Shown here: piece after piece, positions 7,222 through 27,006 of the stretch
How positions within the stretch are numbered: position 1 is the first letter of the stretch
Layout of the letters: each line of letters opens with the position of its first letter
Source of the DNA: a virus
Taxonomy: Duplodnaviria > Caudoviricetes
Virus record (IMG/VR): IMGVR_UViG_3300048858_000147
Location: 1-35,386 of that record
Length of the DNA stretch: 35,386 bases
Direction: 5' to 3' (one strand)
Position numbers and translations under genes: made by a program
Notes under the pieces: model-generated
What the model was told of the DNA's origin: nothing
The model's database searches: none
Seen by the model: only the letters and a program-made list of their open reading frames with translations

Positions 7222-7242
7222 ATGGCGATTCCTTGTAGGTTG

Positions 7243-8288: not shown

Positions 8289-9196
8289 CTCTTTGTCTTC
8301 GGAGAAGCGTTGGGCTCCACCAGCTGCAATTCGGTGTGCCACTGTTCATCGTCGGTGTCGCCGGTGTGCCGCACGCTATCGGCGCGGTAGAAGCCGTTTG
8401 CCAGTCGGCTCTCCAGCTTCACCAGATCGCCCGGATTGATCTGCGGCAGCAGCAGCGATTGCACTTGCCAGCCGTCACGCTGCTGTGCGGCGCTTACCAG
8501 GTTCGCACGTGTGCCGCCTTGTCCGTTGCGGGACTTGTCCTTTTCGCTCGACGCTGCGCGGGTACGCTGCGGATAGCCCCGGAGTCCGGAATCGGCCGCC
8601 AACACCACCGCCTGGCGCCGGGTGGTGCCGCGCTTTGCCACGACCTGCAGTGTCTGGTTCTGGATCGACCACTCGAGCCCGGTGCCCTGCACCACCTTGT
8701 GCAGCGCCTGGCGCGCGGGCCCGTAGAACGAGAAGCCGTTCTGCCAGGTCCGGTCCGGCACGTCCTGCGCCATCATCAGCGGCAGACCCATCTGCCGTGC
8801 CAGCTCGCGAACGATCGCGGTCGCCGCGACGCCGGGGCCATAGCCGAGCGTGACGGCGGTATCCCGGATTTCGACATAGCCATCGTGGACCTCCAGTTCG
8901 GTCACCACGTCGCTGCCGTCGAAGCGGGTCTGCGCCATCGTGATCGTTCCTGCCGCGATCAGGATGGCGCCATCCTCCTCGGCGTATCCGGCGTACAGCA
9001 GGCAGCGCAGGTCTGGCTGATCGATGCGATTGCGGGTATCCGGGGCAAGGTTGTAGAGCCGGATCTTGTGGACGTTCGGCTGCTCGCCGCTGTCCTTCGC
9101 AATCTCGAACTGGATGCGAACGGGCGCCGTGATTTCCAACCCCGGGCTGCCGGCACGACCCACCTGCAGCCGATAGACCCTATTGAAGCGTGCCAT
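8285..9196 (-). CDS. Baseplate hub protein
   Basis: I.FEI.K...PN...I.LYNL, AGY, WSIQN..LQ, SLLLPQINPG..V.L.S, HTGDT...W motifs. Confidence 0.85.
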   Translation of the reverse strand: MARFNRVYRLQVGRAGSPGLEITAPVRIQFEIAKDSGEQPNVHKIRLYNLAPDTRNRIDQPDLRCLLYAGYAEEDGAILIAAGTITMAQTRFDGSDVVTELEVHDGYVEIRDTAVTLGYGPGVAATAIVRELARQMGLPLMMAQDVPDRTWQNGFSFYGPARQALHKVVQGTGLEWSIQNQTLQVVAKRGTTRRQAVVLAADSGLRGYPQRTRAASSEKDKSRNGQGGTRANLVSAAQQRDGWQVQSLLLPQINPGDLVKLESRLANGFYRADSVRHTGDTDDEQWHTELQLVEPNASPKTKR

Positions 9197-9515
9197 TGGC
9201 CAGTTCCTCCGCCGTGATGTAGACGAGCGCCACGTCGCCCGAGGGCAAGGCCTCACGGCCGATGGTGTCGCGCAGGTCCGGCGTCACCGCGACGAGATCG
9301 CCCGCAGGCATGTGCAGATGGCGATACCGCTGCAGCAGCGGCGTGTCGGGGACCACGACGATGCCGCTGACGACGACGTCGTTGTAGGCGTTCTCGATCG
9401 AGAGCGTCCACAACTCGCCCTCGCTATTCCACGACAGATGGAGAAAGTACGTCTCTTCGTCCAGCACGATTTCTGTCAGGCTGTCGTTTGCGTCCAGCAC
9501 GGGAATCTTGAACAT
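9180..9515 (-). CDS. Small phage baseplate-associated protein
   Basis: Overlaps both neighbours; Y.L.L.WN....W.LSI pattern; position between tape-measure-distal gene and hub. Confidence 0.75.
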   Translation of the reverse strand: MFKIPVLDANDSLTEIVLDEETYFLHLSWNSEGELWTLSIENAYNDVVVSGIVVVPDTPLLQRYRHLHMPAGDLVAVTPDLRDTIGREALPSGDVALVYITAEELANGTLQ

Positions 9516-10090
9516 CAACTTCCCCAGTTAAAGAGTTTCGCCAGCGCCGAGGTTTCCTTCGGAGTGGCATCCATGCCAGACACCTTTCCGGCCTTCGTCT
9601 TCGTCGCGCCCGCCTTGCCTTTGGTGCGTCCGGCTTGGGGCGAGACCTTGTCCGGTGGAATCTCGGTGGTGCGCAGCGTTGCCTTGCGGATCTGGCGGAA
9701 GTCGCAGGCAACCTGGAAGAAATCGCCCTTGCCATCCCGGCTGATCTTGCAGGTCTCCATCACCATGTCGGGATAGGTATCGAGCCCGGTCACGACCGTG
9801 ATCGCAGTGCGCTCGCGGTGCAGCGCACGCAAGGCATCCTTGGCCGTGATCAGCTTGCTGCGGCCGCTGGCGCCAAACAGCGTCGTATCGGCGGCGGTCA
9901 CCCAACCGGAAATCGATAGCCGCTCCGATTCGATCCGGACATGGTCGGAAATCGGCGCGCCTTCCTCGACGGCATGGTGGGTGGCCTGACTGTTCAGTTC
10001 GGTGCTTTCGTCGGTCAGCGCGTCCAGCGTGATGGCGCCTATGCCGGTCCTGGCCACACCGGCGGCAAAGACAAGGGATACAAAACTCAT
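9515..10090 (-). CDS. Tail tube initiator / baseplate protein
   Basis: ATGA overlap with tape measure stop; LDA...E.....S..T.H.VE.GA.ISDH and VVTGL.TY.DM motifs. Confidence 0.8.
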   Translation of the reverse strand: MSFVSLVFAAGVARTGIGAITLDALTDESTELNSQATHHAVEEGAPISDHVRIESERLSISGWVTAADTTLFGASGRSKLITAKDALRALHRERTAITVVTGLDTYPDMVMETCKISRDGKGDFFQVACDFRQIRKATLRTTEIPPDKVSPQAGRTKGKAGATKTKAGKVSGMDATPKETSALAKLFNWGS

Positions 10091-11964
10091 GGCATGACCT
10101 CCACCATGGGAACACCGAACGCCGGGCTCCCGGTTCGCGCACTGGAGAGAGCACCGTTGATGCCGCGCTGCGTGGCGGCGGCGACGGCGGCGGGGTTGGC
10201 ACTGGGCGCGTTGACCGTGACGCCGGCAATATTGTTCTGCACGGTGACCGCGGCCGCGGCGCCGCCGGCGCGCTGCACATCGGCGACGCCCACGCCCAGC
10301 ACGTTCTTTCCGACCCAGGAAGCGCCGGATTTCACCCACTCCGGCATCAGGTCGCTGAACATCGCCTTCGCGGCTTCCAGCTTGCCGGTAATCCACGTCG
10401 AGATGCTTTGGCCTACGCCCTGGATCCAGGCCCCCATGGCTTCGAACGCGGCACCCGCCCCGGAGGTGATGCTCTGCCACGCAGCGAGCCCACTGGCCTT
10501 GATGGCGTCCCAATTCTGGTAGATGGCGACAGCGGCGGCCGCGACCGCGGCCACCACCGCCGCCACCAGCAATGCCGGCCAGCCGACCACGCCCGCCAGT
10601 GTGGATACCAACAGCCATCCCAGGCGGACCACCGTGCCGAAACCACGCACGACAGCAAACACGCCTTGTCCGAGCGAGTAGAGGAACGTGACGACACGCA
10701 GCAGAGGGGGACCCATGCCGACGACCAGAACGGCAATCGTGCCGAGCTTGCTGATCCATGGCTCAAGTTCCATCCCGACGCCGCCAAGCTGGTCCTTGAG
10801 CCAGACCATGCCGCCCCGGATGGTGTCGATCGTCCCTTGCCACTCCTCGAAGCCGCCGATCAGCGAGCCGGTGATCGAGGTGCCCCCTCGCATCCAGACC
10901 AGGATGTCGTCGCCGATCAGGGATACGCTCGTGAGCAGCGCCGCCATTCGCAGGTAAGGCCACAGGGCCTTGACCGACGCCCCGCGGAGTCCGCCCATCA
11001 CACGCTGCAGCAGCGTGGCCGATCGCGTTGCCTTGTCGAGCGCGTTGCCCGCCTGCACGAGCCCCCACGACGCGCCAATCAGTCCCGCCGTGACCAGGAC
11101 GCCGTGGAGGTTGCGCGCCAGCAGTTCGACTGCGCCGGCAAAGATCTGCGCAGCACCGGTGAGCTGATTGAAGCTGTCGATCTCGCGTCCCAATGCGTTC
11201 TGCAGCACGGCCATGGCGCCGCCGAAGGTCGGCGGCATCTGGGCGAACTCGCCGTTGATCTGCTCCGCCTGCTGCAACAGCCCTTGGGCGAGCACACCAC
11301 TGGTCAACTTCCCGGCATCCGCCAGATTGCGGAGTTCGTCCACGCTGGTGCCGAAGGCTTGAGCGATCGCCTGGGCGAGCCGGGGTGTCTGCTTGGTAAT
11401 CGCATCGGCCCCCTCTCCGTCCAGGCGGCCCGACGCGAGGGCCTGCCCCACTCGCTCACCAGCTGCTTGTCCCGCTGCGGAATCGCCCCCGCCAATCGCC
11501 GTCGCCTTGCCGATCAACTCGGTCAGCTTCAGCGAGTCGCCCAGCTCCAGCCCCATCCCTTTGGCGCCGCGATGAAGAAGTTCGAACACCTGCGCGGTGC
11601 CGGCGTACTCCTGTCGGGCTCGTTGGGCAATCTGGTAGATCTCGGCCAGAGCCGTCTTCTGCTCCTGGACGCCATTGGTGGCAAGTCCGACGCGCATCTG
11701 CACGGCCGTCCATTGGTCCGCCATCTTGGCGCCCGCCCACACAGTGGCGGCGATCTTGCCGACCAGCTCGGCGATGCCTGCATACCCTTTTTGGGTCTGC
11801 TGGACCTGCTGCCTGCCGTAGGCTTGCGCCTGTTGCAACAAGCCGCCCTGCATGCCTGCGCCGATCCTGACCATGGTGTCGCGGTACGCAATCTGGTACT
11901 GGCGCAGGCCCGATTTATCCACCTGGTAGCGCAGGACCGTGACAATCTCACGAATCTCTTTCAT
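10087..11964 (-). CDS. Tape measure protein (625 aa)
   Basis: Ala/Gly-rich helical protein, QALASG.L.G and GKLTS motifs, hydrophobic central segment; follows chaperones. Confidence 0.92.
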   Translation of the reverse strand: MKEIREIVTVLRYQVDKSGLRQYQIAYRDTMVRIGAGMQGGLLQQAQAYGRQQVQQTQKGYAGIAELVGKIAATVWAGAKMADQWTAVQMRVGLATNGVQEQKTALAEIYQIAQRARQEYAGTAQVFELLHRGAKGMGLELGDSLKLTELIGKATAIGGGDSAAGQAAGERVGQALASGRLDGEGADAITKQTPRLAQAIAQAFGTSVDELRNLADAGKLTSGVLAQGLLQQAEQINGEFAQMPPTFGGAMAVLQNALGREIDSFNQLTGAAQIFAGAVELLARNLHGVLVTAGLIGASWGLVQAGNALDKATRSATLLQRVMGGLRGASVKALWPYLRMAALLTSVSLIGDDILVWMRGGTSITGSLIGGFEEWQGTIDTIRGGMVWLKDQLGGVGMELEPWISKLGTIAVLVVGMGPPLLRVVTFLYSLGQGVFAVVRGFGTVVRLGWLLVSTLAGVVGWPALLVAAVVAAVAAAAVAIYQNWDAIKASGLAAWQSITSGAGAAFEAMGAWIQGVGQSISTWITGKLEAAKAMFSDLMPEWVKSGASWVGKNVLGVGVADVQRAGGAAAAVTVQNNIAGVTVNAPSANPAAVAAATQRGINGALSSARTGSPAFGVPMVEVMP

Positions 11965-12203
11965 CTTTTCCCCGCCATGCTGTTGGCCGCCTTTTGCTGC
12001 GCGGCCTCCTGCGCATCCATCAGCGCGTTCAGTTTCAGGATGTCAACCAGGTCCACGCAACCGCCCCTGATCTCGCTCACGCTGATGTGCCCCGCGATGA
12101 CGGGGCGCCAGATCACGAGTTCCGCGTCGAAGTCGGCGCGGAATCGGCCGACAGCTTCGCCGCGAGGCCTTGGACCGAGCCAAAACGGCCGGCCCAGCGC
12201 AGA
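11961..12203 (-). CDS. Tail chaperone -1 frameshift extension (lambda T analogue)
   Basis: Open -1 frame from the T7 run (12203-12209) to a TGA overlapping the tape-measure ATG; encodes ...ELVIWRPVIAGHISVSEIRGGCVDLVDILKLNALMD... Confidence 0.75.
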   Translation of the reverse strand, partial: SALGRPFWLGPRPRGEAVGRFRADFDAELVIWRPVIAGHISVSEIRGGCVDLVDILKLNALMDAQEAAQQKAANSMAGKR

Positions 12204-12604
12204 AAAAAATCGGCGAAGTTGAAACGGATGATCTGGAACATCAGCTCGAGGATGTCGCCCGCGTCACGGAATGCCAGGGTGCGCATTTCCCTGGTGAGCT
12301 TGGACTCGCGACCGTTGATCGAGACCGCGACGAATTCCGGATCCAGGAGCCGGTTCGCCCAGGCCTCCAGCGACGCGCCGTCGAGCTTGGCCGAGAGCTC
12401 ACGGACCGCCTCGGACAGAGTGGCATCGGGCGTGGCGTTGCCCTGGCCACCCTGCCCGGCGGCGAAGGCGCCTTCGAGCAGATGGCCCACCGCCGGCAGG
12501 ATGTCGCGCTGCAGATCGCCGAAGATGCGCAGCGCAACAAAGGGATCGATCTTGCGGACCATGAATTCGGCGTCGCCGATGGTGACGTTGGTAACGAGGC
12601 TCAT
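12113..12604 (-). CDS. Tail assembly chaperone (lambda G analogue)
   Basis: Between tube and tape measure; ATGA overlap with tube stop; NFADFF motif at the slippery site. Confidence 0.85.
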   Translation of the reverse strand: MSLVTNVTIGDAEFMVRKIDPFVALRIFGDLQRDILPAVGHLLEGAFAAGQGGQGNATPDATLSEAVRELSAKLDGASLEAWANRLLDPEFVAVSINGRESKLTREMRTLAFRDAGDILELMFQIIRFNFADFFLRWAGRFGSVQGLAAKLSADSAPTSTRNS

Positions 12605-13032
12605 GCGGCATTGCCTCCCACAAAGAACGCGCTGTTGCCGGTCTCGATGGTCCACTCGCGGGTGCCGAGCTCGGCGGCGAACTCGGCGGTCGGGTACTTC
12701 ACCACCCAGGCTTCGGACGAGGTGAAGACGGTGCGGCCGCGCAGGTCGGCCACGGCGATAGGAAACAGGCCCGCGCCGCCACTGAGGCGGTCGGCCTGCA
12801 GCAGCGCCGACAGCACGTCGTTGCCCGCGCTGGTCTGCTGCAGCGTGATGGTGACGCGGCACCGGCGATCCGACGACATGGCGCGTGCCACCTCGCCGTC
12901 CGCGCCGACGACGGAAGTCACGCCGTCGCCCACTTCCTCGATGCTGATAAAGGTGTCCGCGGCAAAGCCGCTCAGGGTTGCCGCGCCGACGGTGACGTTG
13001 ACGCGGGACGGATCATAGGTACGAGTGGTCAT
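12601..13032 (-). CDS. Tail tube protein (DUF3277-type)
   Basis: TYDP..V...VG...LSGFA.D.FI, VGADGE, TITLQQTS..ND.L, REW.I motifs. Confidence 0.9.
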   Translation of the reverse strand: MTTRTYDPSRVNVTVGAATLSGFAADTFISIEEVGDGVTSVVGADGEVARAMSSDRRCRVTITLQQTSAGNDVLSALLQADRLSGGAGLFPIAVADLRGRTVFTSSEAWVVKYPTAEFAAELGTREWTIETGNSAFFVGGNAA

Positions 13033-13044
13033 GGAGTGCTCCGA

Positions 13045-14400
13045 TCAGAGGGCGTAGGTCAGGTTGCCGCGGATGGTGACGGCGTGGATGGCGCCGGCCA
13101 GGCGCGCGGTGAACGACACGTCGTTCAGCACGCGGTTGGCCTTGTCGTTGAAGGGCACGCTCGCGGCAAGCGGCGCGCTGATGGTGTAGGACGGGATCTT
13201 GCGGCCGTCGTCGCCCAGCTCCTCCGGCGCGATGCCCCCGCGCGACACACCCAGGTCGAGCGCCTTGCGCATGGCGGTGGTGATGATCTGGATGCCGCCA
13301 TCGGTGTAGGGCACCTTGCCGTTGGCGTTGACCAGAGCGGATACGACGTTGATCTTGACCTGCTCGGCCAGCCAGTCGCGGAAGCGGATCACGTCGATCC
13401 ATTCGCCAGCCGCGACCTTGCCGCCCTGCGTGATCGCGAAGTTGCGGAACGGCTCGAATGTATTGGCGTTCTTGTTGCGCGCCGCGATCGACTGCCCCTC
13501 GCTGAGGTTGTCGAACGAGATGCCGGCAAGGCGCAGGTTGGCCCACGTCTCGCCGCCCGGATAAAAGGTGAAGCGATTGCCGGCCACCGCGGCCTCCAGC
13601 CATTCCGAGGCCGCGGCCGCGTGGTACCAGACGGCGGTCCGGAAGAACTGCTTCTGCTGCAGCTTCGATGCCAGGTCGGTTTCAGACGCGCCATCGATGA
13701 TCCCCGCCTGGCTCGACGACACGCCCATCAGCTTGGCGTTCGACTCGACCCATTCGGCGGCCGCAAGAATGTCGGCCTCCGCGCGGCTGGCGAGCACGAC
13801 GCCATACCAGTCGTCGTTCTCGGCGCGGCAGGCCGCCAGCGCGTCGACGATGGGCTCCGTCGCTTCCAGCGGCTGCAGCGCGAGGTTGCCTTCCAGTGCA
13901 ACGGCAATGGCAGCGCCTTCCACATCGGCCGCGACCGTCACGGTCGAGCCTGCCGCCGTCGTCGTGACAGGCGCCGCCGTCGCGTTGATCGCCGTCGCGA
14001 GCGCCTGGGCGATCGTCGTGTCACTGTCGGCCGCGGTGGCCGCATAGCTCGCCGTGACGCTCTGCGGTACGCCGCCCGCGTCGTTCCACTGCAGCTTGAC
14101 CTGATACGCCGATTCGGCGGCGCGGGTCACGGCCACATCGAAACTGTCAACGGCCTGCCGCCCGATAAAGCAGCGGTAGATGGTGGGGATCTGCTTGAAC
14201 ACGTCGCGCACGGCCATGTATAGCGGCGACGCGCTGGACAGGCCAAGCTCCAGCAGCTCGTCGGCCGACGTCACGGCCATCACGCGGCCGAGGCCAAGCG
14301 TGTGCGGGCCGACGACAAGCAGGTCGGAAAAGGACTGCTCCTTGATTGCGGTGGTGTTCAGGCTGATCTGAACGTTGACGATACGATCGAGTGTTGCCAT
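13045..14400 (-). CDS. Contractile tail sheath (DUF3383-type)
   Basis: LDRIVNVQISL start, PG.ETW, GEWIDVIRFRDWL, KVPYTD.GI, LAGAIH.V.I.G end. Confidence 0.92.
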   Translation of the reverse strand: MATLDRIVNVQISLNTTAIKEQSFSDLLVVGPHTLGLGRVMAVTSADELLELGLSSASPLYMAVRDVFKQIPTIYRCFIGRQAVDSFDVAVTRAAESAYQVKLQWNDAGGVPQSVTASYAATAADSDTTIAQALATAINATAAPVTTTAAGSTVTVAADVEGAAIAVALEGNLALQPLEATEPIVDALAACRAENDDWYGVVLASRAEADILAAAEWVESNAKLMGVSSSQAGIIDGASETDLASKLQQKQFFRTAVWYHAAAASEWLEAAVAGNRFTFYPGGETWANLRLAGISFDNLSEGQSIAARNKNANTFEPFRNFAITQGGKVAAGEWIDVIRFRDWLAEQVKINVVSALVNANGKVPYTDGGIQIITTAMRKALDLGVSRGGIAPEELGDDGRKIPSYTISAPLAASVPFNDKANRVLNDVSFTARLAGAIHAVTIRGNLTYAL

Positions 14401-14410
14401 GCAAGGCTCC

Positions 14411-14440
14411 AAAAAAAAATAGCCGCCCGAGGGCGGCTTT
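14411..14440 (-). terminator. Intrinsic terminator abutting the sheath RBS
   Basis: Minus strand AGCCGCCCTCGGGCGGCT-A-T8 then GGAG and ATG 14400. Confidence 0.8.
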
Positions 14441-14472
14441 GGTCTTCCAGTCCACGCCTGTGTGGACTGTGC

Positions 14473-14958
14473 TCAGTGGTCAGGGGCGAGCCCCGTCGTT
14501 TCGGTTCCATCTACGTTCACCGTTTCGATCACGGCGATCTCTTCGTCGAGCGTGACGGTGTAGCGCACGCTGAGCGCGAGCTGCATGCGGGGTTCGTACG
14601 TCCCGTCTTCCTGCAGCAGGGAAACCTGTTGCACCTCGCCGATGGAAAAGACGGCCAAGTCCAGCGCCTCGGCGTGGAGCAGCGCCCTCTCCATCTGCAG
14701 ACGCTGCGCCAGGGTCTCCATGGCGTTCATGCCGCCGGCGCCGAAGTACGTCAGTTCGATCCGTGCATCGCGATGGCTGCTGACGGCTCGCACACCATCC
14801 GATGCAACAGGCCCGAGATGCAGCGGCAAACTGGTGGACCCCCGCAGCGTCAGCGCGATATAGGGCCTGGCCGGCGGTGCTTCGTCCTGCTCGGCCACAA
14901 TCACGGGCACAGTGGCTTCCGTCGAGATCAGTTCATGGATGGCCTGCTCGGGTGTCAT
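14473..14958 (-). CDS. Tail terminator / neck completion protein
   Basis: First late gene, upstream of the sheath; VIVAEQ...P.RPYI start and E.R.QL.L.VRY...E.I..IE.V end fit tail-terminator folds. Confidence 0.75.
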   Translation of the reverse strand: MTPEQAIHELISTEATVPVIVAEQDEAPPARPYIALTLRGSTSLPLHLGPVASDGVRAVSSHRDARIELTYFGAGGMNAMETLAQRLQMERALLHAEALDLAVFSIGEVQQVSLLQEDGTYEPRMQLALSVRYTVTLDEEIAVIETVNVDGTETTGLAPDH

Positions 14959-14971: not shown

Positions 14972-15004
14972 GGATGGGATACGGATGGGATACGGATGGG
15001 ATAC
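14972..15004. repeat. Three tandem copies of an 11-bp unit
   Basis: GGATGGGATAC at 14972, 14983 and 14994. Confidence 0.92.
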
Positions 15005-15059: not shown

Positions 15060-15186
15060 GGGCACACATCATTGGACCATCGGCATAGCTTGCTGGTGCG
15101 CTGCATCGAGCGTGGGCGGCCCCCGGCATGAAACATCGATATGCGGCCTGGCAGAACGGCACCACCAAGACCCGCGCCAGAAATGC

Positions 15187-15211
15187 AAAAGCCCCCAACA
15201 AGTGGGGGCTT
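15187..15211 (-). terminator. tR'-like terminator just after the late promoter
   Basis: Minus strand AAGCCCCCACTTGTTGGGGGCTTTT. Confidence 0.75.
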
Positions 15212-15239
15212 CAGATACATTGACTGCGAGTCTGGGAGA

Positions 15240-15268
15240 AATATACAAGGCTTGTCGCAGAACCGCAA
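15240..15268 (-). promoter_or_regulatory. pR'-like late promoter
   Basis: TTGCGG-17 bp-TATATT right after the late-regulator stop; paralogous promoter at 22762-22790. Confidence 0.7.
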
Positions 15269-15279: not shown

Positions 15280-15915
15280 CTACGCGTGAACGGCCACTGC
15301 CATCGGCGGCTCGTACTCGGTGGCTTCCGCCACGAGTCCGTGCGCGATGAACGTCGGCTCCAGACGCGACAGCGCCAGATTCTCCAGCGCACGGAAATTC
15401 GTCTCCATCCATTTGGCTGCACGAAAGATCTTGTCCTTGCTGACCTGATGCTTTTCGCCGAGCGCCCGTACCGTCAGGCCCTCGCGCTGCTCGCGCGGCA
15501 GGTAATGACGCGCGGCGAGTTCCAGCAGCAGCGTGCCCGACGTCAATCCCGACGAGCGGCGCGCGTACAACGCCAGCCGCTTGCACCCTTCCAGCTTCTC
15601 GGGACCAATCGCAAAACGCGCGAGCACGGCGGCCATCTCCTGGCTCGGCAGACGATCCCGCGCGGCAGCCGTCACCATGCTGCACTGGGCCCGGATCTCG
15701 TTGGGAGCGAGGCCGTCGAAGTTGACGGTGCCACTGCCCCCGTTCTCGCGCAGCCGCTCCAGCCACGCCTGCTGCTGCCCGGTGGGCCGCTCGAGATCCT
15801 CCAGCAGACGGACCAGCATGTTTCGAAATGGCTGCCCATGCTGCGGCGGCATCGACAGGATCAGATAGGACACGCGCAGCGCTTGCTCGGTGCTGGTGAA
15901 AATGGCTTCAGTCAT
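15280..15915 (-). CDS. Putative Q-type late antiterminator/activator
   Basis: Sits between helicase and pR'/tR' like lambda Q; C-terminal HTH-like segment LTVRALGEKHQVSKDKIFR; function is positional inference. Confidence 0.65.
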   Translation of the reverse strand: MTEAIFTSTEQALRVSYLILSMPPQHGQPFRNMLVRLLEDLERPTGQQQAWLERLRENGGSGTVNFDGLAPNEIRAQCSMVTAAARDRLPSQEMAAVLARFAIGPEKLEGCKRLALYARRSSGLTSGTLLLELAARHYLPREQREGLTVRALGEKHQVSKDKIFRAAKWMETNFRALENLALSRLEPTFIAHGLVAEATEYEPPMAVAVHA

Positions 15916-16023: not shown

Positions 16024-17418
16024 TCACAGGTCCGCGACGACGTCGCGTCTTCGTGCGGCGGCGCCGGCGCTGAGCGACGGCAGTGGGCCCGCCCATTCGT
16101 CGAACCTGGTCACCGCACCGCGGTACAGCAGCGGTACGTCACCGAGCGCGCCGTTGCGCTGTTTGCGGATCATCACTTCGGCGTAGCCCTTCGACGCCAG
16201 GTCCGCGGGCTGGTACATCTCGGGACGGTGGACCAGCAGCACCACGTCGGCGTCCTGCTCGATGTCGCCGGAATCCCGCAGATCCGCGAGCTGCGGCTTC
16301 TTGTCCGGTCGCTCCTCGCTCTTGCGGCTCAGCTGCGACAGCACGATGACGGCGGCGTTGAGATCCTTGGCCAAGGCTTTCAACCCGCGCGAGTACGCGC
16401 CGATCTGCTGCGTGCGCTGCTTCTCCTCGCCGCCCGTCATCAAGCCGAGGTAGTCGACGATAAGCACGTCCAGGCCGTATTTGCGCTGGTGCGTCCTGGC
16501 CTTCATCCGGACATCGAGCAGCGTCAGTGCCGGCGTATCGTCAACCGCGAAGCGCAGCGTTTCGAGCGCCGCGAAGACGCTCTGCATCCCAATCAATGCG
16601 CCGTCGTCGTGCTGATCCAGCCGGCCAAGCAACGTGGATAGCGCCACTTCGCCCCGGCTCGCCACAGCCCGCGCGACGATTTCCTGATCGGCCATCTCCA
16701 TCGACAACAACAGCACGCTGTAGTCGCTGGCCATGTTCAAGCCAATGTTCGTCGTCAGAGCGGTCTTGCCCATCGAAGGGCGGCCAGCGACGACAACCAG
16801 ATTGCCGCGACGCACACCGCCGTTCAGCGCTTTGTCCAGGCAAGGCAATCCGGTCGGGATCGCCGTCTGCCCCGTGCCCGCGATGCGCTCGTCCACCGTC
16901 TGGGCGAAGGCTGGCAGCAAGTCGCGCAGCAACCTCGGCTCCTTGCGCACGCCCGCCTGCGCCAGACGAGCCAGCATGCTCTGGGCGCAGTCCAGTATCT
17001 CGGCGCCATTCATCGCGCTGGGGGTCTGCACCAGCTCCTGCACCCTTCGAACCGTGGCCAGCGTCTCGCGCAGCAAGGCCCGGTCGCGTACGGTCTGCGC
17101 ATAGCGCGCGATATTGGCCGCGCTTGGCGTGCTATGCGCCAGTTCGGTCAGATAAGTCAGACCGCCCACATCCGCCGCGACGCCCCGTTCCTGCAGCGCA
17201 TCGAATACGGTCACGACGTCGGCCGGCTTACCGGCCACGATGAGGCCGAGAATGCGCGAGTAGATCTGCCGGTGATCGAGCCGGTAAAAGTGTGCTGGTT
17301 CCAGACCGGCAATGCGGTCGAAGGCATTGTTATCGAGCAGCAGGCCACCGAGCACAGCCTGCTCGGACTCCACACTCCACAGTGCCCGGCTTGATGCAAT
17401 ATGGTCGGGCGCGGTCAT
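16024..17418 (-). CDS. dnaB: Phage DnaB-like replicative helicase
   Basis: EQAVLGGLL, Walker A GRPSMGKT, SMEM, IVDYL, QLSR, DLRDSGDIEQDAD, KQRNG all intact. Confidence 0.95.
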   Translation of the reverse strand: MTAPDHIASSRALWSVESEQAVLGGLLLDNNAFDRIAGLEPAHFYRLDHRQIYSRILGLIVAGKPADVVTVFDALQERGVAADVGGLTYLTELAHSTPSAANIARYAQTVRDRALLRETLATVRRVQELVQTPSAMNGAEILDCAQSMLARLAQAGVRKEPRLLRDLLPAFAQTVDERIAGTGQTAIPTGLPCLDKALNGGVRRGNLVVVAGRPSMGKTALTTNIGLNMASDYSVLLLSMEMADQEIVARAVASRGEVALSTLLGRLDQHDDGALIGMQSVFAALETLRFAVDDTPALTLLDVRMKARTHQRKYGLDVLIVDYLGLMTGGEEKQRTQQIGAYSRGLKALAKDLNAAVIVLSQLSRKSEERPDKKPQLADLRDSGDIEQDADVVLLVHRPEMYQPADLASKGYAEVMIRKQRNGALGDVPLLYRGAVTRFDEWAGPLPSLSAGAAARRRDVVADL

Positions 17419-18233
17419 GCGGTCACCTGTCCGTGATAGCGGCCTTCGCGAATCTTCGCGAAATTCTCGGCCTTGACCATCCAGTCGAGGCTGGCGATGA
17501 AGGGCTTGCGGCCATCGGCGATCTTCACGCGGCCAGTCAGGAATTCGGACTCGGCCACATAGCTGAAGAACCGGCGCCAGTAATCCAGATCCTGACGCTT
17601 TGCATCCTCGTTCCAACGCGCGCGAAGCGCCTGGGCACGGGTCGGCGTCCAATCACGAATACCGGGGCACATTGGCAGCAGCTCGTGGTACAGCGCCACG
17701 ATGGCCTGATGCGGGCACGTCTGCCTGCCGGCCTTGGCGGTCGTGGCCCCAGGAGCCACGGCGAATCCGACGTCTCCGTCCGCGACCACCACGTCAGTGG
17801 TGGTGATGGTGTCTTCTGGCTGATGGCTCATGGTTGATGGCTGATGGCTTAGGTTTTCTTCGCTTTGCGCATCACTCGCCGGCGGTAACCCGATCGGTTT
17901 CTCCTCTGTTTCCTTTCGCTTTGGTCTGCCACCACGTTTGCCGTTGGCCCGGTTCGCTTCGCTCTGTGCGCTGGCGATTTCGATTTCCCGCTCGCATCGC
18001 GCCTGCCTCCAGGTATCGCTGTCCAGCTCGAAAAACTCGGAGAGCACGGCTTCGACCGCGCTCAGTTCCTCATCGGTACGCGCCCCGATCAGGCGGGCCG
18101 CCTGGCTGGCCGGTATGCCCCCTTCGCGCGAGTAGTAGACGTCCATCAGCCTTGCGTAGACGCCGTGTTCCAGTAGGGACAGATGCGCGGCATCCTTGAT
18201 GTAGTCGCCGATATGGCGCTTATAGAAATTCAT
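17415..18233 (-). CDS. YdaU/DUF1376-family replication initiator
   Basis: MNFYKRHIGDY..D..HLS.LEHG.Y..L.D.YY..E N-terminus, NGKRGGRP linker, C-terminal LDW.VK.ENF.KI.EG.Y; ATGA-coupled to helicase. Confidence 0.9.
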   Translation of the reverse strand: MNFYKRHIGDYIKDAAHLSLLEHGVYARLMDVYYSREGGIPASQAARLIGARTDEELSAVEAVLSEFFELDSDTWRQARCEREIEIASAQSEANRANGKRGGRPKRKETEEKPIGLPPASDAQSEENLSHQPSTMSHQPEDTITTTDVVVADGDVGFAVAPGATTAKAGRQTCPHQAIVALYHELLPMCPGIRDWTPTRAQALRARWNEDAKRQDLDYWRRFFSYVAESEFLTGRVKIADGRKPFIASLDWMVKAENFAKIREGRYHGQVTA

Positions 18234-18333
18234 TCACTGCTCCATGCGGTGGGTCCGGCCGCCAGCGTCACGGGCGCCTGCCGCTTTCGTCCAAGCTTTG
18301 CTTCGTTCGGGGCCGGTTGCCCCCTTGCGACCG

Positions 18334-18404
18334 ATTGTATTACCCATTCGGTAACACATCAACGGAAATTTGTTACCATAACGGTCTATTTACCTTTTTG
18401 GTCC
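18334..18404. promoter_or_regulatory. Divergent control region: PR-like promoter and three operators
   Basis: Minus strand TTGATG-17-TACAAT (18362 to 18334); TTACC-N5-GGT sites at 18340-18354, 18373-18387, 18390-18404. Confidence 0.75.
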
Positions 18405-18415
18405 TTACAGGTCCA

Positions 18416-19333
18416 ATGGCGCCCATGAAATCAATCAAGGAAATCCGCAGGGAGAAGCTCGCCCTGGCGATACGGGACAGGTGCGATGGCAACCAGTCGC
18501 GAGCCGCGGAAGGGCTGGGCTATTCCACGCCCTCGCTGGTCAATCGCTATCTGAGCGGCGCCAAGGACATCGGCGACCGGACCGCCCGCAAGATCGAAGA
18601 AACGTTCGGCTATCCCACCTACTGGATGGATTCCGAAGCCGCGCCTTCAGTACCGGACGACCAGGCGTTGGAAGTGGCGGCACGAGCCGCGCTTTTATTC
18701 CGGCAAACTGGAGCCAGTCCCGCGGCGATTGCGCAGTTGGCCAAGATCCCGCTGAGCGATGTGGAAGAGTGGGCGCAGGGCTTGCGCAAGCCCACGCTGG
18801 ACCAGGCCATCGCCATCCAGGACCGGTATCAGATCAATGCGGTCTGGCTGATGACGGGCAAAGGCCAGCCCTCCCCTACCATCGCCCACAACGACGACTG
18901 GAATCCGATTCCCATTCCACAGCGCGCATACAAAAAGATCGCCGTCGTAGCAATGGCTCAGCTTGGCGACAACGGAAATTTCTGCGACCTGGAGTATCCG
19001 GTCGGCCATGGCGATGGCTATCTGCACTTCATCAGCACGGACCCGGATGCCTATGGATTGCGTTGCGCGGGGCAATCGATGGAACCGCGTATCAGGGACG
19101 GCGAGTTTGTCGTCGTCGCGCCCAACCACCCGGTCACGAATGGCGATGAAGTCCTGGTGAAGTCGCGCGACGGGCGCGTCATGGTCAAGGTACTCGGCTA
19201 TGCCCGGGACGGTTACACGACACTGCTGTCGGTGAACCAGACGCATAAGCCAATCAGAATCCTGTCCGCGGATATCGAAAGGATGTCGTTCATCGAGGCG
19301 ATCGTGAAGCCATCCGCTTGGCGGCCGGATTGA
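18416..19333 (+). CDS. CI-like repressor with two HTH domains and an S24 peptidase domain
   Basis: HTH1 (NQSRAAEGLG..PSLVNRYL), HTH2 (AAIAQLAKI....VEEWAQG..KP...NAVWLMTGKG), AQLG cleavage region, GQSMEP Ser, VMVK Lys; start 18416 or 18425. Confidence 0.9.
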   Translation: MAPMKSIKEIRREKLALAIRDRCDGNQSRAAEGLGYSTPSLVNRYLSGAKDIGDRTARKIEETFGYPTYWMDSEAAPSVPDDQALEVAARAALLFRQTGASPAAIAQLAKIPLSDVEEWAQGLRKPTLDQAIAIQDRYQINAVWLMTGKGQPSPTIAHNDDWNPIPIPQRAYKKIAVVAMAQLGDNGNFCDLEYPVGHGDGYLHFISTDPDAYGLRCAGQSMEPRIRDGEFVVVAPNHPVTNGDEVLVKSRDGRVMVKVLGYARDGYTTLLSVNQTHKPIRILSADIERMSFIEAIVKPSAWRPD

Positions 19334-19483
19334 ATGGAAAGCGAGTCGCGGGCCGTCTTTTGACATATATATCAACTTCTCCGACCAATAAGCGCCCGTA
19401 GCTTCAATATTTGATATATACGTCAACTGCAAAGACCGCCTCGGCATGTCGGCAGCTGCTTGCGCGGCTCGCTGTCCGCGATA

Positions 19484-19503
19484 TACTGTACATCCATACA
19501 GTA
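19484..19503. promoter_or_regulatory. LexA (SOS) box
   Basis: TACTGTACATCCATACAGTA, 16 bp before ATG 19520. Confidence 0.9.
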
Positions 19504-19519
19504 TTCGACGAGCGTAACG

Positions 19520-19783
19520 ATGCCTGCCACCTTCCCCGCCAAGTCCGTCTCTCTCGAAATCCAGTTCTTCGGAGACCTTCGGGACGAATTCCATGTGCCC
19601 TGCGATGCCGTCACCGTCCACACCAATACGATAACGGTCCGAGGCCCCCAGGCATGGCGCCTGGCTTCTGTCGGCTGGACGCCCGATTCCCTTTGCTTCC
19701 ATTGCTACGACCAAAGCCACCGATTTCCGGTAGGCCGTCCGACGATCCTGGATGATCGGACCGCGCGGTTTCCGTTGCTTTGA
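19520..19783 (+). CDS. SOS-controlled 87-aa hypothetical protein
   Basis: ATG directly behind SOS box; no family recognised. Confidence 0.65.
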   Translation: MPATFPAKSVSLEIQFFGDLRDEFHVPCDAVTVHTNTITVRGPQAWRLASVGWTPDSLCFHCYDQSHRFPVGRPTILDDRTARFPLL

Positions 19784-20431
19784 GAGGCCAAGGAGAAGGC
19801 GTAGCTTGGGCGACAAACCAATTCAGAATCGCCCAATGAACAGCCCTACAGATGTGATCCGGGAAGGCAGCTGCTAAAGTGATGCCGTAATCCCGATGGC
19901 ATAGTGTCCTTCGCAGGCATGCCTGCGGTCCTCGCTCGGTCAGCATACTGAGCAAACGATAGGCGTGGTTTCTCTCTATCGCTATACACCTTAGGCACGT
20001 AAGACCTTCGACGCCTAACGCAAGAACCCGGCCTCACCGGGGAGAAGATGGCTGCTCTGTTTCGAGTTGATGGCAGTCAGCAGTGGCGGAAGTACGCCGG
20101 CGGCGCCCAGCGGCGGGAGATGGCTCCGCAGATGCAGTTCTTCGGCGACGCGCGCGGGAGCTCACCGTCCGAAGAGCCGGACCGCATCCTGGGACATCGG
20201 CAGAGGTTGAACTCCAGCGACAAGTAGGCTAGGACCGCCAAGAAGAAAGGCGCGCCCATCGCCCCACCCTGAGACTCGGGAAATGCGTTTGTCTGATGAC
20301 GCTTGATGCGCGGCCTTTCGATCGAAAGTTATTTCTTCCGTTACCCATCGAAGGAAGCTGCAATAGCTTCCTCGGTTTGGCGGCGCCGCCTTGATGGCGC
20401 TGGCGGTGAATTCCCTCTACATATTCTGGGT

Positions 20432-20460
20432 AAAAATGGGCCGCCCTATAGCGGCCCATG
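20432..20460 (-). terminator. Intrinsic terminator after the tailspike operon
   Basis: ATGGGCCGC inverted repeat with 6-nt loop, followed by T run on minus strand. Confidence 0.7.
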
Positions 20461-20477
20461 CTGTCGTCTATTACCCG

Positions 20478-20624
20478 CTACTCAGCGTCGGCAGCTTGGT
20501 TCTGCTGGGCCACATCTAGCTGCCGCAATGCCTCCATTGCGGGAGCAACTTCTCGGTACGGTCGCATCGAGAGGTAGGTCAGAACTTCTTGGAGAAGGGA
20601 GGCGGGGATCAGGTAATTTTCCAT
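20478..20624 (-). CDS. 48-aa tailspike-associated protein (absent from ORF track)
   Basis: Hand translation MENYLIPASLLQEVLTYLSMRPYREVAPAMEALRQLDVAQQNQAADAE; starts 2 nt after tailspike stop and ends before a terminator. Confidence 0.65.
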   Translation of the reverse strand: MENYLIPASLLQEVLTYLSMRPYREVAPAMEALRQLDVAQQNQAADAE

Positions 20625-20626
20625 GG

Positions 20627-22189
20627 TCATACAGTGGTGTTGTCAGTGAGAAGTCCCAGAGAAGCGAGTGCAGCTAGCACGCCTTTCAGTGCTCCATTAC
20701 CTCCGCGAGATCCAGATACGGCTGGCTTCGTAGTGGGAGTCGCCCCGAAGAATCCAATTGAATTGCCGGAGTGGAGGACGCTGTTGTTGAGCGTAACCTG
20801 GTTACCGGTGACCTGGAGGTTGGGATTTCCAGCGACTACAAACAGAAGCCCAGATATGGAACTGGAATACGTGATGTAGTCCCCGTTAAAACTCGTGGTC
20901 CGAAAATCCGACTCGAGGCTTCCCGATGCAAGAGCCGCATTGTTGAAGTAGATTCGGTCATCGCGCTTCAACGAAATCGCGGCTTTTTGCGCTCCGAAAT
21001 CGAGGCCCGACATCGCAAAATCGAGGCCACTAACCCATTTTCCGACACCGGAAAAGATCGCATCGCAGCTCGCGGAGCCGATGTTTTGAGCCCGGTAACC
21101 ATTCCAAATTGCGGACTTCGCGCCGGTAGCCTTAGTGCGCTTGAAGTTGTTCACGATGCCGATAGCCGCGACATCAAAGCCGCCATCGTCCATGACCGTT
21201 TCATATGGATTCATGTAGACGCCATCGGCGCCTGCGTGCATGTCGCCGTTAAACAGAACGGCAGCTGGGTTGGCAAGAAAGCTCGTTGACCCCTGCTTTG
21301 TGCCGGTCACAAAAGCCGAGCCGTTAAAGCATGCCGCATCGCCCTGACCATTCTGATAAACGCGTACGCGGTACGCTGCGATTCCAGTGCGCCCATCATT
21401 GCCGCTCAAAGACTCATTCCAACCGCTCTCGTTGTACAGAAACGTGTAGCTTGGCATCGCTTCTGGACGATACGTATAGCCAGTCGTTGGCTTTCCCAGC
21501 GTGTCCTCGCCGGTAACCCTATGCTCAATTGCGAAGTGGGAACGGGACCAGTCGCCGTTGAACGCAGTAGCTACATCGTCCTCGTTACCGATGGCCGAAG
21601 GGGCCGCAGTTACGGCATTGAACCATTTGCCGCGCTTGTTGCCGCCCCCGTCGCGGATTTGTCCCGGACCATAAAGCGAGTTCTCGAGATTAGCCGCTTG
21701 CGTCGTAGTTCGGAATACCCCCCGCGGTACGAAGGCGATGGCGTTGGAGGCTCGTGCGTTATTGAGGGGGGCGGTATTGTCTGTCATGTCGTCGCCAATC
21801 GCGCCCCAATCAACTACCGCCTCGATGTCTCGCATCTTCGCTTGAGCTGTGCGCGGAACGGATGAAACGCCAGCCTGGATGAAGCCGATGGAGGCAGAGC
21901 CGTGACTTTGGGAGAGTCCCAGCGCCTCTACATTGTCTCGGTCCCAGATGGTGGTGCCAGCGCTGTCCTTCAGCGTCAGCCGGTAGTTTCCAGAGCCGTA
22001 TACGACTGCCTCGCCCCGGGCATTTAGGGTGATGGGATTCGCGTTCGGAGTGGCGCCGTGTGCATCCTGGTAAGTCGCCTTTGCGGTTAGGGTGCCAGCT
22101 GCATAAGTGAATAGCAGCCCTCCGCTTAACGGACGCCCGCTAGCGTCCTCGAACGATTGGACGGGATCCGGCAATAAACTCATTGTCAT
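20627..22189 (-). CDS. Podophage-type tailspike / tail fibre (orphan)
   Basis: N-terminal F.D..G.PL.GG..FTY.AGT....ATYQD...NPI.L.ARGE particle-binding domain; RTAQAKMRD..AVVDWGAIGD..TDNT motif typical of beta-helix tailspikes. Confidence 0.82.
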   Translation of the reverse strand: MTMSLLPDPVQSFEDASGRPLSGGLLFTYAAGTLTAKATYQDAHGATPNANPITLNARGEAVVYGSGNYRLTLKDSAGTTIWDRDNVEALGLSQSHGSASIGFIQAGVSSVPRTAQAKMRDIEAVVDWGAIGDDMTDNTAPLNNARASNAIAFVPRGVFRTTTQAANLENSLYGPGQIRDGGGNKRGKWFNAVTAAPSAIGNEDDVATAFNGDWSRSHFAIEHRVTGEDTLGKPTTGYTYRPEAMPSYTFLYNESGWNESLSGNDGRTGIAAYRVRVYQNGQGDAACFNGSAFVTGTKQGSTSFLANPAAVLFNGDMHAGADGVYMNPYETVMDDGGFDVAAIGIVNNFKRTKATGAKSAIWNGYRAQNIGSASCDAIFSGVGKWVSGLDFAMSGLDFGAQKAAISLKRDDRIYFNNAALASGSLESDFRTTSFNGDYITYSSSISGLLFVVAGNPNLQVTGNQVTLNNSVLHSGNSIGFFGATPTTKPAVSGSRGGNGALKGVLAALASLGLLTDNTTV

Positions 22190-22210
22190 TTTTTTCGGCC
22201 TCAGAAATGA

Positions 22211-22262
22211 AAAAAGCCCGCACGAGGCGGGCATGAAAAAAAGCCGCCCAAGAGGCGGGCTT
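22211..22262 (-). terminator. Tandem terminator-like hairpins before the tailspike RBS
   Basis: GCCCGCCTCGTGCGGGC+T run preceded by a second GC hairpin + T run. Confidence 0.65.
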
Positions 22263-22707
22263 CATGGTGTGGTGTCAGTCTGGCGCGGTCGCGTCGAGGG
22301 GATGATGGCGCCCCGTCAGGGAAGGCTCAACCGCTGCCACTTTTGCGCAGTTATTCCTGAGCGCGTCTGTCTGTACGGTAGTCAACCAAAATTGGCTGAT
22401 CCCGGTACCGCTGTTTTGCCTATCGGGCGACACGATTGTGTATGAGCCTGGCACGAAAGCTGTCTTGGTAACAAATCAAACCAATCGCTACAAGAAGGTT
22501 CTCGGCCTGGCATCAAGCCTTGACGATAGTGCCCCCCGAACTCCCAGGAGGATTGCACACCTTTCGGACCCATTTGAAACGCGGCATGGCTCGGAAAGTG
22601 CATTCACGGCGGAAACCGCCGATATCCGTGTAATACGATATCTGGTTGCCTTGCATTTCGCCTCCTCTGGATTAGAACCACCGGACGATGCAAATCTAGC
22701 GGCCAAT

Positions 22708-22790
22708 AAAAAAGCCCCTTGCAGAGAGGGGCTTCGGAGACTTTTGCGGCGAGTATGGCAAAAATTTACACCGCTTGTTTAAAAAACGCA
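22708..22790 (-). promoter_or_regulatory. pR'-like late promoter and tR'-like terminator of element B
   Basis: TTGCGT-17-TAAATT followed by AAGCCCCTCTCTGCAAGGGGCTTTTT; same layout as 15187-15268. Confidence 0.7.
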
Positions 22791-22812
22791 AACACTTTTT
22801 CGCGGCCAGCCC

Positions 22813-23276
22813 TTATGCCCCAAGGCATCCCGACTCATTGCACGTTGTACGGCCCGCCGCCAGCCTATGCCCGATGAACTTTGGATTCAGCCGCGCCACC
22901 GCCGGCTTCTCCGGCGTTCAGAGATTTGCTCCGTACAATTCGCCGCGCGGAACAGCCGTGTAGCGTCCTGCTTGCGCTGCCGGCGATCGCGCGGAAGGTG
23001 TACCCTTCCTTCGCTCCCGCTCGCCGGGAAATGTCAAGCAGCAGCGCGCCCGCGACCAAGCCGGAAGATGGCCACGCGTACAGCGCTAGGCATTTGCAGC
23101 CCTGCGGTTTCTCTGCGCCCACCGCAAAGGGCGCAAGCACCGCAGCCATCTCGTGGTTGGGCAGCCGGTCGCGCACGGCGGGCCGTGGCCATCCTGCACT
23201 GAGCACGAACCTCGTCAGGCGCCAGCCCGCCAAAGTTATCGTGCTGTTGCCACTGGCGCTGCAGTTGCTCTAGCCA
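22813..23276 (-). pseudogene. Truncated, frameshifted paralog of the late regulator at 15280-15915
   Basis: NFGGLAPDEVRAQC and RDRLPNHEMAAVLAPFAVGAEKPQGCKCLALYA align by eye with NFDGLAPNEIRAQC and RDRLPSQEMAAVLARFAIGPEKLEGCKRLALYA, spread over different frames. Confidence 0.88.
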
Positions 23277-23279
23277 TGC

Positions 23280-23987
23280 ACGTTGCTGTCCGCGCGGCGG
23301 TACAGATTCAGCGACCTGATAAGCATGTTCCTGGATGGCGTTCCTCGAAAAGGTCTACGCAATACGAACCCCGTGAGCGAGGTACCCCCGGCGCCACCGA
23401 AGATAATCGAGACCGCTACATCACGGACGCCGAGCTGGCCGCCGTACGTGCCGCGGCGCTGGTCGGCAGTCATGGCAAGCCAACGCCATCGGGCGCGGCA
23501 ATCGTTGCCCGATTGACCACGCAGCTACTCGTTGATCCGCATGCTTCGAACTGGTGTGATGTCGGCCCGGAGCGATCATGTTCATCTAGCGAAGACGGTG
23601 ATCACTTCTGTCATTCGGATGCTGGTTGACGCGACTTGAGGGGACGCTAGACGCGGCAAGGGCCGGGAAGGTGAAGGCCATCAACATTTGCACACAAACG
23701 GGCCGCAAATTGACCTACAGCGGAGCGCAGACGGCTTGGTAAACGTTCATGCGAACGAGCGCGGCAGCAGAATTAGTAAGGCTGCAAGAAGTCAGGAAAG
23801 AGCTCAACGGCAAGCACCAGATTGGGATGCATTTTGCATTTCCACGATGTGCGCGCAAAGGGTTAGACGGACAAGCGAAGGCGGGAAGGCGCCGCGGCGG
23901 CCCAAGCATTGGCCGGACATACCAACGCGGAAATGACCGCGCATTACACAAAGGCGCAAGAGATTGAGCACGTCCACCGTCGCGATG
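23280..23987 (+). pseudogene. Tyrosine integrase pseudogene
   Basis: Fragments across frames: NPVSEV, RDRYITDAELAAVR, FHDVRAKG-stop-TD, AQALAGHTNAEMTAHY; ends next to the tRNA fragment. Confidence 0.85.
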
Positions 23988-24018
23988 AAGTTAGACAAAC
24001 GCGCCCAAGTTAGACAAA
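23988..24018. repeat. 12-bp direct repeat, probable integrase arm-type sites
   Basis: AAGTTAGACAAA at 23988-23999 and 24007-24018. Confidence 0.7.
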
Positions 24019-24048
24019 AGGCCTAGCGAGTAAAACCCGCTAGGCCTT
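24018..24048. terminator. Hairpin between integrase remnant and att core
   Basis: AAGGCCTAGCG...CGCTAGGCCTT inverted repeat. Confidence 0.65.
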
Positions 24049-24056
24049 CTAATTAC

Positions 24057-24103
24057 TGGTAGGGGCGAGAGGATTTGAACCTCCGACCACCTGCACCCCA
24101 TGC
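24057..24103 (-). mobile_element. att core: 3' half of tRNA-Pro(GGG)
   Basis: Minus strand GCATGGGGTGCAGGTGGTCGGAGGTTCAAATCCTCTCGCCCCTACCA has anticodon loop, T arm and CCA but no D arm or 5' acceptor strand. Confidence 0.88.
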
Positions 24104-25270: not shown

Positions 25271-25379
25271 TCACCAACGCAAAAAGTGATCTTCTGTGTT
25301 CTTAACTCTCATAAAAGAACAGTTTTCATGAAAAAGGGCCAGCGCACCGATGGCTACTCCAACCGGCTTAACGTCGATA

Positions 25380-25399
25380 TACTGTACATCCATACAGTA
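25380..25399. promoter_or_regulatory. LexA (SOS) box
   Basis: TACTGTACATCCATACAGTA, identical to 19484-19503. Confidence 0.9.
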
Positions 25400-25414
25400 T
25401 CCGCCGAGTGCAAC

Positions 25415-25536: not shown

Positions 25537-26147
25537 GTGCCCGCCCCTACCCTCGCCGAGCTGTCGCCCATGCTCCTGACAGAGCGAACGTTTATCCCTG
25601 CTAAGGGCGACTGGCTGTACGAGATCAAGTACGACGGGTATCGCTTCCTGGCGGCGACGGGCGAAGCGCAATTGCAATCCCGGAACGGGCACGTCGCCAC
25701 GCGGTGGTTTCCCCAGATTGCCGAAGCGATGGCGACACTGGCGCCAGGGTGCATCCTCGACGGCGAGGTATGCGTGCTGGACGATCTAGGCAGGCCCGAC
25801 TTCGATAGGCTGCACAAGCGGGCAGCGCGCCGCGGCCGACCGCCCGGGTCCGATCCTGTGGTCTTTTCCGTGTTCGACCTGCTGGTACTGGACGGCGAAG
25901 ATGTCCGGGACCAGCCGGTCGAGGATCGAAAGGCAGCGCTCCGGGGAGTGCTGGACTGCTGCACGTCAGTGCTGCTCTACGTCCAGGACGTGGAGGACGG
26001 CCAGGGGCTGTATCAGCATGCCGTGGCGGGCTAGAGGGCGTCGTCGGGAAACGAATTGGCAGCGGGTACCAATGCGGGAAGCGGTCGAGCGATTGGGTGA
26101 AGGTCAAGCGGCCCGGAGCCGTGCCGCCTGAGCGATTCAAGCGCTAA
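25537..26147 (+). pseudogene. ATP-dependent DNA ligase adenylation domain (LigD-like), frameshifted
   Basis: EIKYDGYR, LDGE, FDLL motifs; stop at 26034 while GLEGVVGKR..S.Y..G.RS.DWVKVK continues in another frame to 26147. Confidence 0.85.
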
Positions 26148-26152
26148 AGCGC

Positions 26153-26542: not shown

Positions 26543-26647
26543 GATGACTCCTATCGTCCATAAGTCTTCAGTATGGCCCGCCAAGAGGCGTTGAGTCCAC
26601 CCCGGGACCTCGGAAGTGGGGCGCAACAACGGGGTGGCACCACACAT

Positions 26648-26695
26648 ACAACAAAAGTGTTATTTTTTTCCTGGCGATCACAACATTTATGTTGT
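26648..26695. promoter_or_regulatory. Probable HicB operators
   Basis: ACAACA-TTTA-TGTTGT palindrome at 26680-26695 and near copy ACAACA-AAAG-TGTTAT at 26648-26663 upstream of hicA. Confidence 0.6.
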
Positions 26696-26729
26696 ATTAT
26701 TTCTCCATAGCCACTCAACACGGAGGAGC

Positions 26730-26915: not shown

Positions 26916-27006
26916 AGGGAGGGCCCGAAAGGGCCTTCTCCGAACGAATCTCGCTCAAAGCATGTTGCTCGCTTCAAATCGCCATCCAGACTGGAGGCAA
27001 TAAAGT

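Follow-up and report, generated by a model that had tools for sequence, protein, structure and literature searches.

A single virus record of 35,386 bp (the window, the whole stretch of DNA analysed here) carries a headless, integrase-less contractile-tail locus from a soil bacterium, which we call element A and which, from its gene content, is likely an R-type-like bactericidal tailocin that has kept a replication initiator and a DnaB helicase. The anatomy of the locus, the selection on its replication genes and the convergence of other lineages on the same arrangement are the established part of this work. Long-term selection and repeated convergence on a three-gene module (initiator, helicase, late regulator) argue that replication is a kept function. 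In line with the proposal of the first-pass annotation, we think that the intact initiator and DnaB would probably replicate the locus in place after induction, raising the dosage of the tail and lysis genes.

Element A has a CI repressor divergent from an initiator-DnaB-late regulator-tail-lysis order (Table 1). The first-pass annotation had described initiator and DnaB as the sole early genes besides the late regulator, and indeed nothing else lies between CI and the tail terminator. Its DUF3383-type tail has phage records no nearer than 40–44% identity, and the tail genes show dN/dS of 0.04–0.47. A six-frame search of the window with 432 query proteins for capsid, portal, terminase, packaging, integrase, cro, cII, resolvase and NinB genes gave matches only at 23.15–24.0 kb; neither a terminase small subunit nor another packaging gene was found in the window, and no head genes were found in the orthologue of element A in genome G001 either. 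The first-pass annotation had seen neither integrase nor packaging genes for element A in this window. The window does contain an integrase at 23316–23995, frameshifted and broken by stops, which adjoins a tRNA-Pro 3' att fragment (24058–24103) in a variable remnant. A 97–98% identical strain from an independent study carries element A but skips 19786–24057 (joint 19786 to 24057), and because that strain lacks the remnant, the broken integrase lies outside element A. The element itself bears no trace of att at either end in the DNA examined, its distal end lying beyond the window and having been checked in G001 only.

Table 1. Features of element A and of the adjoining remnant, with positions in the window.
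Feature	Position	Strand	Description
Lysis genes	1868–3358	minus	Endolysin, holin-like protein, spanin
Contractile tail genes	3439–14958	minus	Terminator, DUF3383 sheath, tube, chaperone, tape measure (625 aa), hub, spike, baseplate wedge, fibre, fibre chaperone
Late promoter-terminator unit	15175–15265	minus	TTGCGG-17-TATATT, then GC hairpin and U run
Late regulator, predicted AlpA-like antiterminator	15280–15915	minus	211 aa; phrog_17923
DnaB-type replicative helicase	16024–17418	minus	464 aa from ATG; Pfam DnaB and DnaB_C
Replication initiator	17415–18233	minus	272 aa; Pfam DUF1376, E 7e-28; PHROG primosomal protein
Predicted origin	17800–17950	minus	Within initiator linker; five CCA at 7-bp spacing (about 17813–17850), next to AAAGCGAA-like repeats
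Divergent control region	18234–18415		Conserved TTACC-type boxes; sigma-70-like promoter on the minus strand, -35 at 18362, -10 ending 18334
CI-type repressor, HTH and S24 peptidase	18416–19333	plus	Pfam HTH_3, Peptidase_S24; phrog_4; divergent from early operon
Left deletion joint	19360–19783	plus	Paired TTGA-N8-TCAA boxes, CTGT-N8-ACAG box, 87-aa gene
Neighbouring remnant	22985–24103		Broken late-regulator paralogue, broken integrase, tRNA-Pro 3' att fragment

At the left joint the att core is missing, and the conserved 87-aa gene, which has no Pfam, PHROG or NCBIfam match, normally sits just inside a prophage att end. Two TTGA-N8-TCAA boxes about 35 nt apart (19360–19426) follow the CI stop and are conserved in all three orthologues, and CTGT-N8-ACAG sites, presumably LexA-box-like, lie at 19479–19783, ahead of the 87-aa gene, and at 25375–25400. 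Further along, the decayed remnant holds an open 520-aa tail-spike-like gene (20627–22189) behind a second late-promoter-like region; it is absent from strain X2 and might provide element A with a spare receptor-binding protein. The cargo between the elements (25537–27426) includes an ATP-dependent ligase domain gene, with an apparent frameshift near 26.0 kb, and a HicAB-like toxin-antitoxin pair. Element B (28.4–35.4 kb), with lysis, O-acetyltransferase, fibre and Mu-like baseplate genes, is truncated by the contig end; its counterpart in G001 is a complete prophage.

The replication pair proved as intact and translationally coupled as the first-pass annotation had it. Both frames are open, the initiator stop and the DnaB start overlap as ATGA, and every DnaB motif is present (GRPSMGKT, SMEM, IVDY, LSQLSR, DLRDSGDIEQDAD and KQRNG, which we take to have their usual roles). 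Residues 14–445 of DnaB align to solved replicative helicases (best 6bbm_A, E 1.9e-88). We also considered the phage DnaB as a substitute for that of the host and rejected this, a separate, higher-scoring DnaB being present in 5/5 genomes tested. The initiator consists of a DUF1376/YdaU N-domain, a disordered linker and a C-domain, and its structure model has two confident domains around a low-confidence linker at 117–165. A fold search gave no match under E 0.1, with weak Foldseek rows (winged-helix, DnaD-model, E 0.16 or worse); the role of the protein is predicted from family labels and gene position. Its C-domain is paired with various N-domains, and DnaB is the next gene in every listed locus.

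Lambdoid initiators have the origin inside the initiator gene, and by likeness to them the repeat in the linker is predicted to be an origin. The 7-bp CCA repeat runs out of frame, is retained in 3/3 orthologues and in headed relatives, and was matched by none of 30 synonymous shuffles. Synonymous-site identity is 24/32 in the repeat region vs 82/158 elsewhere (p 0.013, for a region picked after inspection). The periodic-repeat test is not universal: 7/9 headless initiators contain runs, and those of G019 and G087 do not exceed shuffle level. GC skew has no inflection at the initiator. The origin-like repeat, at about 17.81–17.85 kb, coincides with the site where the first-pass annotation expected a coverage peak.

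The TTACC-type boxes of the divergent region are inferred to be CI operators, and CI itself has dN/dS of 0.055–0.077 across orthologues. The CI-initiator gap measures 182, 255 and 165 bp in the three orthologues, with eroded DNA in place of the cro of headed relatives, and no cro match was found in element A. AlpA is a processive antiterminator, and the late regulator is predicted to be AlpA-like, since its structure model (pLDDT 82.5) matches the AlpA complex (PDB 7xyb_G, E 7.1e-6, prob 1.0). The late promoter-terminator unit is almost unchanged among the three orthologues (hairpin z -4.2); its promoter-like sequence was read by eye and was missed by a consensus scan that performed at chance level (2 promoters vs 1.3 expected). 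The late leader also contains an 11-bp tandem repeat (14972–15004), from which strain X2 lacks 22 bases.

The locus occurs also in C. respiraculi LMG 21510 (L021 in G001) and in record G079, and was found in one of the 78 species genomes of the genus. The three orthologues have in common the late joint, the loss of cro and the att-less left joint, and they group as one clade in the sheath tree as well as in the DnaB tree (100/99); loss of the head was therefore a single event. In pairwise Nei-Gojobori comparisons of the three, dN/dS is 0.12–0.20 for the initiator and 0.11–0.17 for DnaB at dS of 0.45–1.08, values no higher than those of DnaB in 10 headed prophages (0.17–0.40, median 0.26, 45 pairs). 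When neutral drift of 0.45 substitutions per site was simulated, about 17 stops arose on average, and 0/200 runs were stop-free. By these measures both replication genes have been under purifying selection since the head was lost, which shows that they work and not what they are for. The branches of the DnaB clade are long (stem 0.29, G001 0.28), consistent with long isolation, although some relaxation could be masked. It is very improbable that the pair are leftovers, either undecayed as yet or refreshed by recombination with active prophages. Prophages do turn over at this tRNA site, related initiator-DnaB pairs are common in the genus, and the available text of the rhizoviticin paper takes such genes as an early evolutionary stage (PMC10811719); however, the three DnaBs form a clade of their own on its long stem, the dS of initiator and DnaB equals that of CI and the late regulator, and adjacent neutral DNA is visibly decayed. 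Decay was seen in another prophage, where a related DnaB is interrupted by an IS21-like insertion (L137; G021:C1 1248–1253 kb).

In G001 a prophage array occupies tRNA-Pro(GGG), with the locus as its distal member after a complete prophage, and in both G001 and G079 a complete prophage with head genes lies 5–9 kb from the repressor end of the element. The initiator linker of the G001 locus is at about C2:452.9 kb, and the adjacent prophage has an origin of its own ~36 kb from there. The first-pass annotation had raised the possibility that the locus supplies DNA to a head encoded elsewhere, and this found no support. The neighbouring prophage differs between the two genomes (contractile Mu-like tail vs lambda-like tail) and is thus no fixed partner, and its head module (HNH, terS, terL, HK97-like capsid) is of a kind that suggests cos-type packaging. 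Gene transfer, in which run-off products would be packaged by the head of the neighbouring prophage as in lateral transduction or the Bartonella GTA, is likewise highly unlikely, even with a headed prophage so close and the precedent described in the available text of PMC2697382; both features of the neighbour argue against it, as do the metabolic genes upstream of the Pandoraea-type loci described below.

Our survey of headless tail loci points to the same arrangement having arisen repeatedly. A sheath-family search, blind to replication genes, had matches in 13/78 genus genomes and 43/396 scored family genomes. It led to 48 fetched sheath loci, 46 of which were classified, 40 as headed and 6 as headless; the counts leave out L166 and L175 (sheath loci at contig ends), five weak or contig-end sheath places and five unscored genomes. 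The headless loci are those of G001, of G034, of G269, G248 and G325 (proteins identical to those of these three are filed under Pandoraea) and of G087. In all six the late regulator is immediately preceded by a full-length initiator with a helicase or loader (full length by six-frame reading for the initiators of G269, G248 and G087), and no head genes were recognised downstream of any of them. Frequent loss of the two genes from orthologous loci, which the first-pass annotation had named as evidence against amplification, is thus not the pattern: in 3/3 orthologues the pair is undamaged and purifying selection acts on it, and 6/6 headless loci found by sheath alone keep it. The headless loci fall at four places in a sheath tree of 37 rows (three sheaths without a match and several headed loci being outside it), three of them with strongly supported headed sister groups and G087 weakly placed but apart. 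A fifth lineage, G019:C2, found through its replication genes and not by sheath, has the same module before a non-contractile tail. The five headless DnaBs do not form a single clade (p-AU 9e-78), and initiator families and helicase/loader types vary among the headless lineages. Helicase and regulator are -3 to 324 bp apart in the five headless lineages vs 632–6638 bp in 23 headed loci (excluding L123, with its uncertain loader, and duplicate loci), where the interval usually holds RusA/RuvC or NinB; as headed loci are not independent samples, these gap statistics are indicative only. The short gaps therefore suggest that deletions took the neighbours and spared the replication pair.

The individual loci differ in how far they have been reduced. 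G034 and G087 retain int, xis and cro, with int and xis of G087 located at tRNA-Ser, and the other three headless lineages are without cro or integrase beside CI. In G034:C7 (412.7–432.1 kb; L118, L119) a headless contractile tail is accompanied by intact integrase, excisionase, cro, initiator and DnaB, and a 25-bp tRNA-Pro direct repeat stands at both ends, ~19.5 kb apart; from this layout it is predicted to be an excisable tail-only element. The G019:C2 locus (3003–3019 kb; L120), with its non-contractile tail, 451-aa tape measure and CI-initiator-DnaB-regulator module, is a possible F-type tailocin. One headless DUF3383 tail locus, always at the same site, is common to G269:C1 (2151–2168 kb), G248 and G325 (L143, L145, L146, L202–L204); its initiator belongs to a different family and its loader is P-like (dN/dS of initiator and loader 0.14–0.19), metabolic genes lie upstream, and tRNA-Pro is distal in two of the three. 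A second survey, by late regulator (matches in 33/396 family and 17/78 genus genomes), added 20 further loci, among which no headless tail locus, whether carrying replication genes or not, was recognised and several were unclassifiable. One could regard these loci as selfish tail-only mobile elements whose replication serves their own spread and which helper phages package, element A being a grounded late stage. The attachment repeats of G034, the int and xis of G087 and the complete prophages adjoining element A are in keeping with this idea, which we nevertheless find quite improbable, because element A is without att in the DNA examined, yet selection went on to dS near 1 after grounding, and because the terminase small subunit and other packaging genes are absent.

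In our model of in-place amplification, DNA damage would trigger RecA-driven self-cleavage of CI and open the early promoter, as in lambdoid phage biology. The early transcript would yield initiator, DnaB and antiterminator; the initiator would bind the repeats within its own gene and load its own DnaB, and forks would pass into the chromosome since excision is impossible. The AlpA-like protein would then read through the terminator behind the late promoter, and more templates would give more tails before lysis. Speculatively, extra operator copies may also titrate CI and so replace the lost Cro. The loss of resolvases from the module is as expected if the DNA has no need for packaging. In the likely source sample, sequencing depth is flat, at 16.5 on the element contig and 17.8 and 14.2 on the flanking contigs; being uninduced contig means, these values cannot reveal a peak, and they lend amplification no support. 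The analysis covered 10 sequencing runs in the form of assembled contigs of uninduced samples, with short joints of 20–47 letters on one side counted as noise. The pieces from the single RNA run were short and shallow and are no evidence of expression.

A different use of the same genes would be as a switch, whereby firing of an unexcisable origin would block forks or tie up primase, prolong RecA activation or titrate CI, thereby committing the cell to late transcription with little gain in copies. The distribution of cro, lost in the three lineages that are also without integrase and retained in the two with int and xis, fits such a role, and late transcripts of rhizoviticin require the replication genes (PMC10811719, whose main text, as available, contains no DNA copy-number measurement and neither of the words 'complement' and 'polar'). 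This is the foremost alternative, but we consider it unlikely, since a full-motif helicase and a conserved origin-like repeat exceed the needs of a stalling device; the switch and amplification readings also overlap. We tentatively propose, as a possibility to which we give somewhat less than even weight, that Burkholderiaceae lambdoid prophages have at least five times been reduced to a repressor plus an initiator-helicase-antiterminator-tail-lysis series. They would start as excisable tail-only elements that still have int, xis, cro and att, of which G034 is an example, and end grounded like element A, where in-place replication would multiply the tail genes and also take over the commitment step from Cro, giving a recurrent class of self-amplifying tailocins.

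These findings run against the definition of tailocins as being without replication genes, as given in the available text of a review (PMC12090994). Rhizoviticin, the described exception, had been taken as an early, transitional state (PMC10811719, as far as its text is available); in-place replication, if true, would also account for the rhizoviticin mutants. A search of the literature found no paper on in-place amplification of a tailocin locus or on the loci described here, subscription papers and supplements, whose gene tables could list tailocin replication genes, being mostly outside its range; the available text of PMC13626063 and PMC12946183 had no bearing on the matter. The question matters for understanding how prophages are converted into host weapons, for tailocin yield and for tools based on coverage, which would label such loci active phages.

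PBSX reportedly replicates in place. Excision-defective prophages undergo run-off replication in Salmonella and Bartonella (available text of PMC2697382 and bioRxiv 2024.11.20.624540). Like Bartonella run-off/BaGTA and Salmonella escape replication, element A has a phage-derived origin (here a predicted one) and helicase fixed in the chromosome and an antiterminator over structural genes. Unlike BaGTA, which has capsid and terminase and whose amplified DNA is packaged, element A has neither of these genes nor other means of packaging, and its amplification is only proposed. The late regulator resembles AlpA (PDB 7XYB, 7XYA) in predicted fold and in its place after a CI-controlled promoter and before lysis genes; it differs in being 26% identical and in preceding the whole tail operon, in one operon with the replication genes.

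With the R-type tailocins (R pyocins, BceTMilo, BglaTNB6 and MEDPRO2), as described in the texts available, element A has in common a full contractile tail set, a lysis cassette, a head deleted up to the tail terminator, with no capsid, portal or terminase, and a damage-inducible type of control; it is also without excision machinery. Burkholderia R-type tailocins are described there as P2/KL3-like or phiE202-like, whereas the tail of element A is DUF3383-type. As for replication, MEDPRO2 works without such genes (PMC10870725), BceTMilo keeps int and xis with no mention of 'replication' or 'helicase' in the available text of PMC5411513, and replication goes unmentioned in that of PMC11524443 on BglaTNB6. 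The first-pass annotation had contrasted element A with known tailocins on this point. R-type tailocins are described without replication genes, but the contrast is overstated, because rhizoviticin of Allorhizobium vitis VAR03-1 keeps and needs both initiator and DnaB: deletion of either gene abolishes killing and reduces late transcripts, the mechanism being left open (PMC10811719, main text). Like element A, rhizoviticin is described there as headless, beside a tRNA and without an att pair, with a LexA/CI-type repressor and with initiator and DnaB upstream of tail and lysis genes. It differs in its F-type tail, in belonging to the Alphaproteobacteria and in retaining RuvC and a sigma-type regulator; element A has a sheath and a contractile tail, an AlpA-like antiterminator and three early genes, has lost cro and resolvase (no resolvase match in the window), and has its module repeated in five lineages. 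By gene content, element A is thus closest to rhizoviticin and resembles an R-type tailocin locus except for its replication genes. The kept initiator and DnaB have their precedent in rhizoviticin, and what is new here is the convergence and the evidence of selection.
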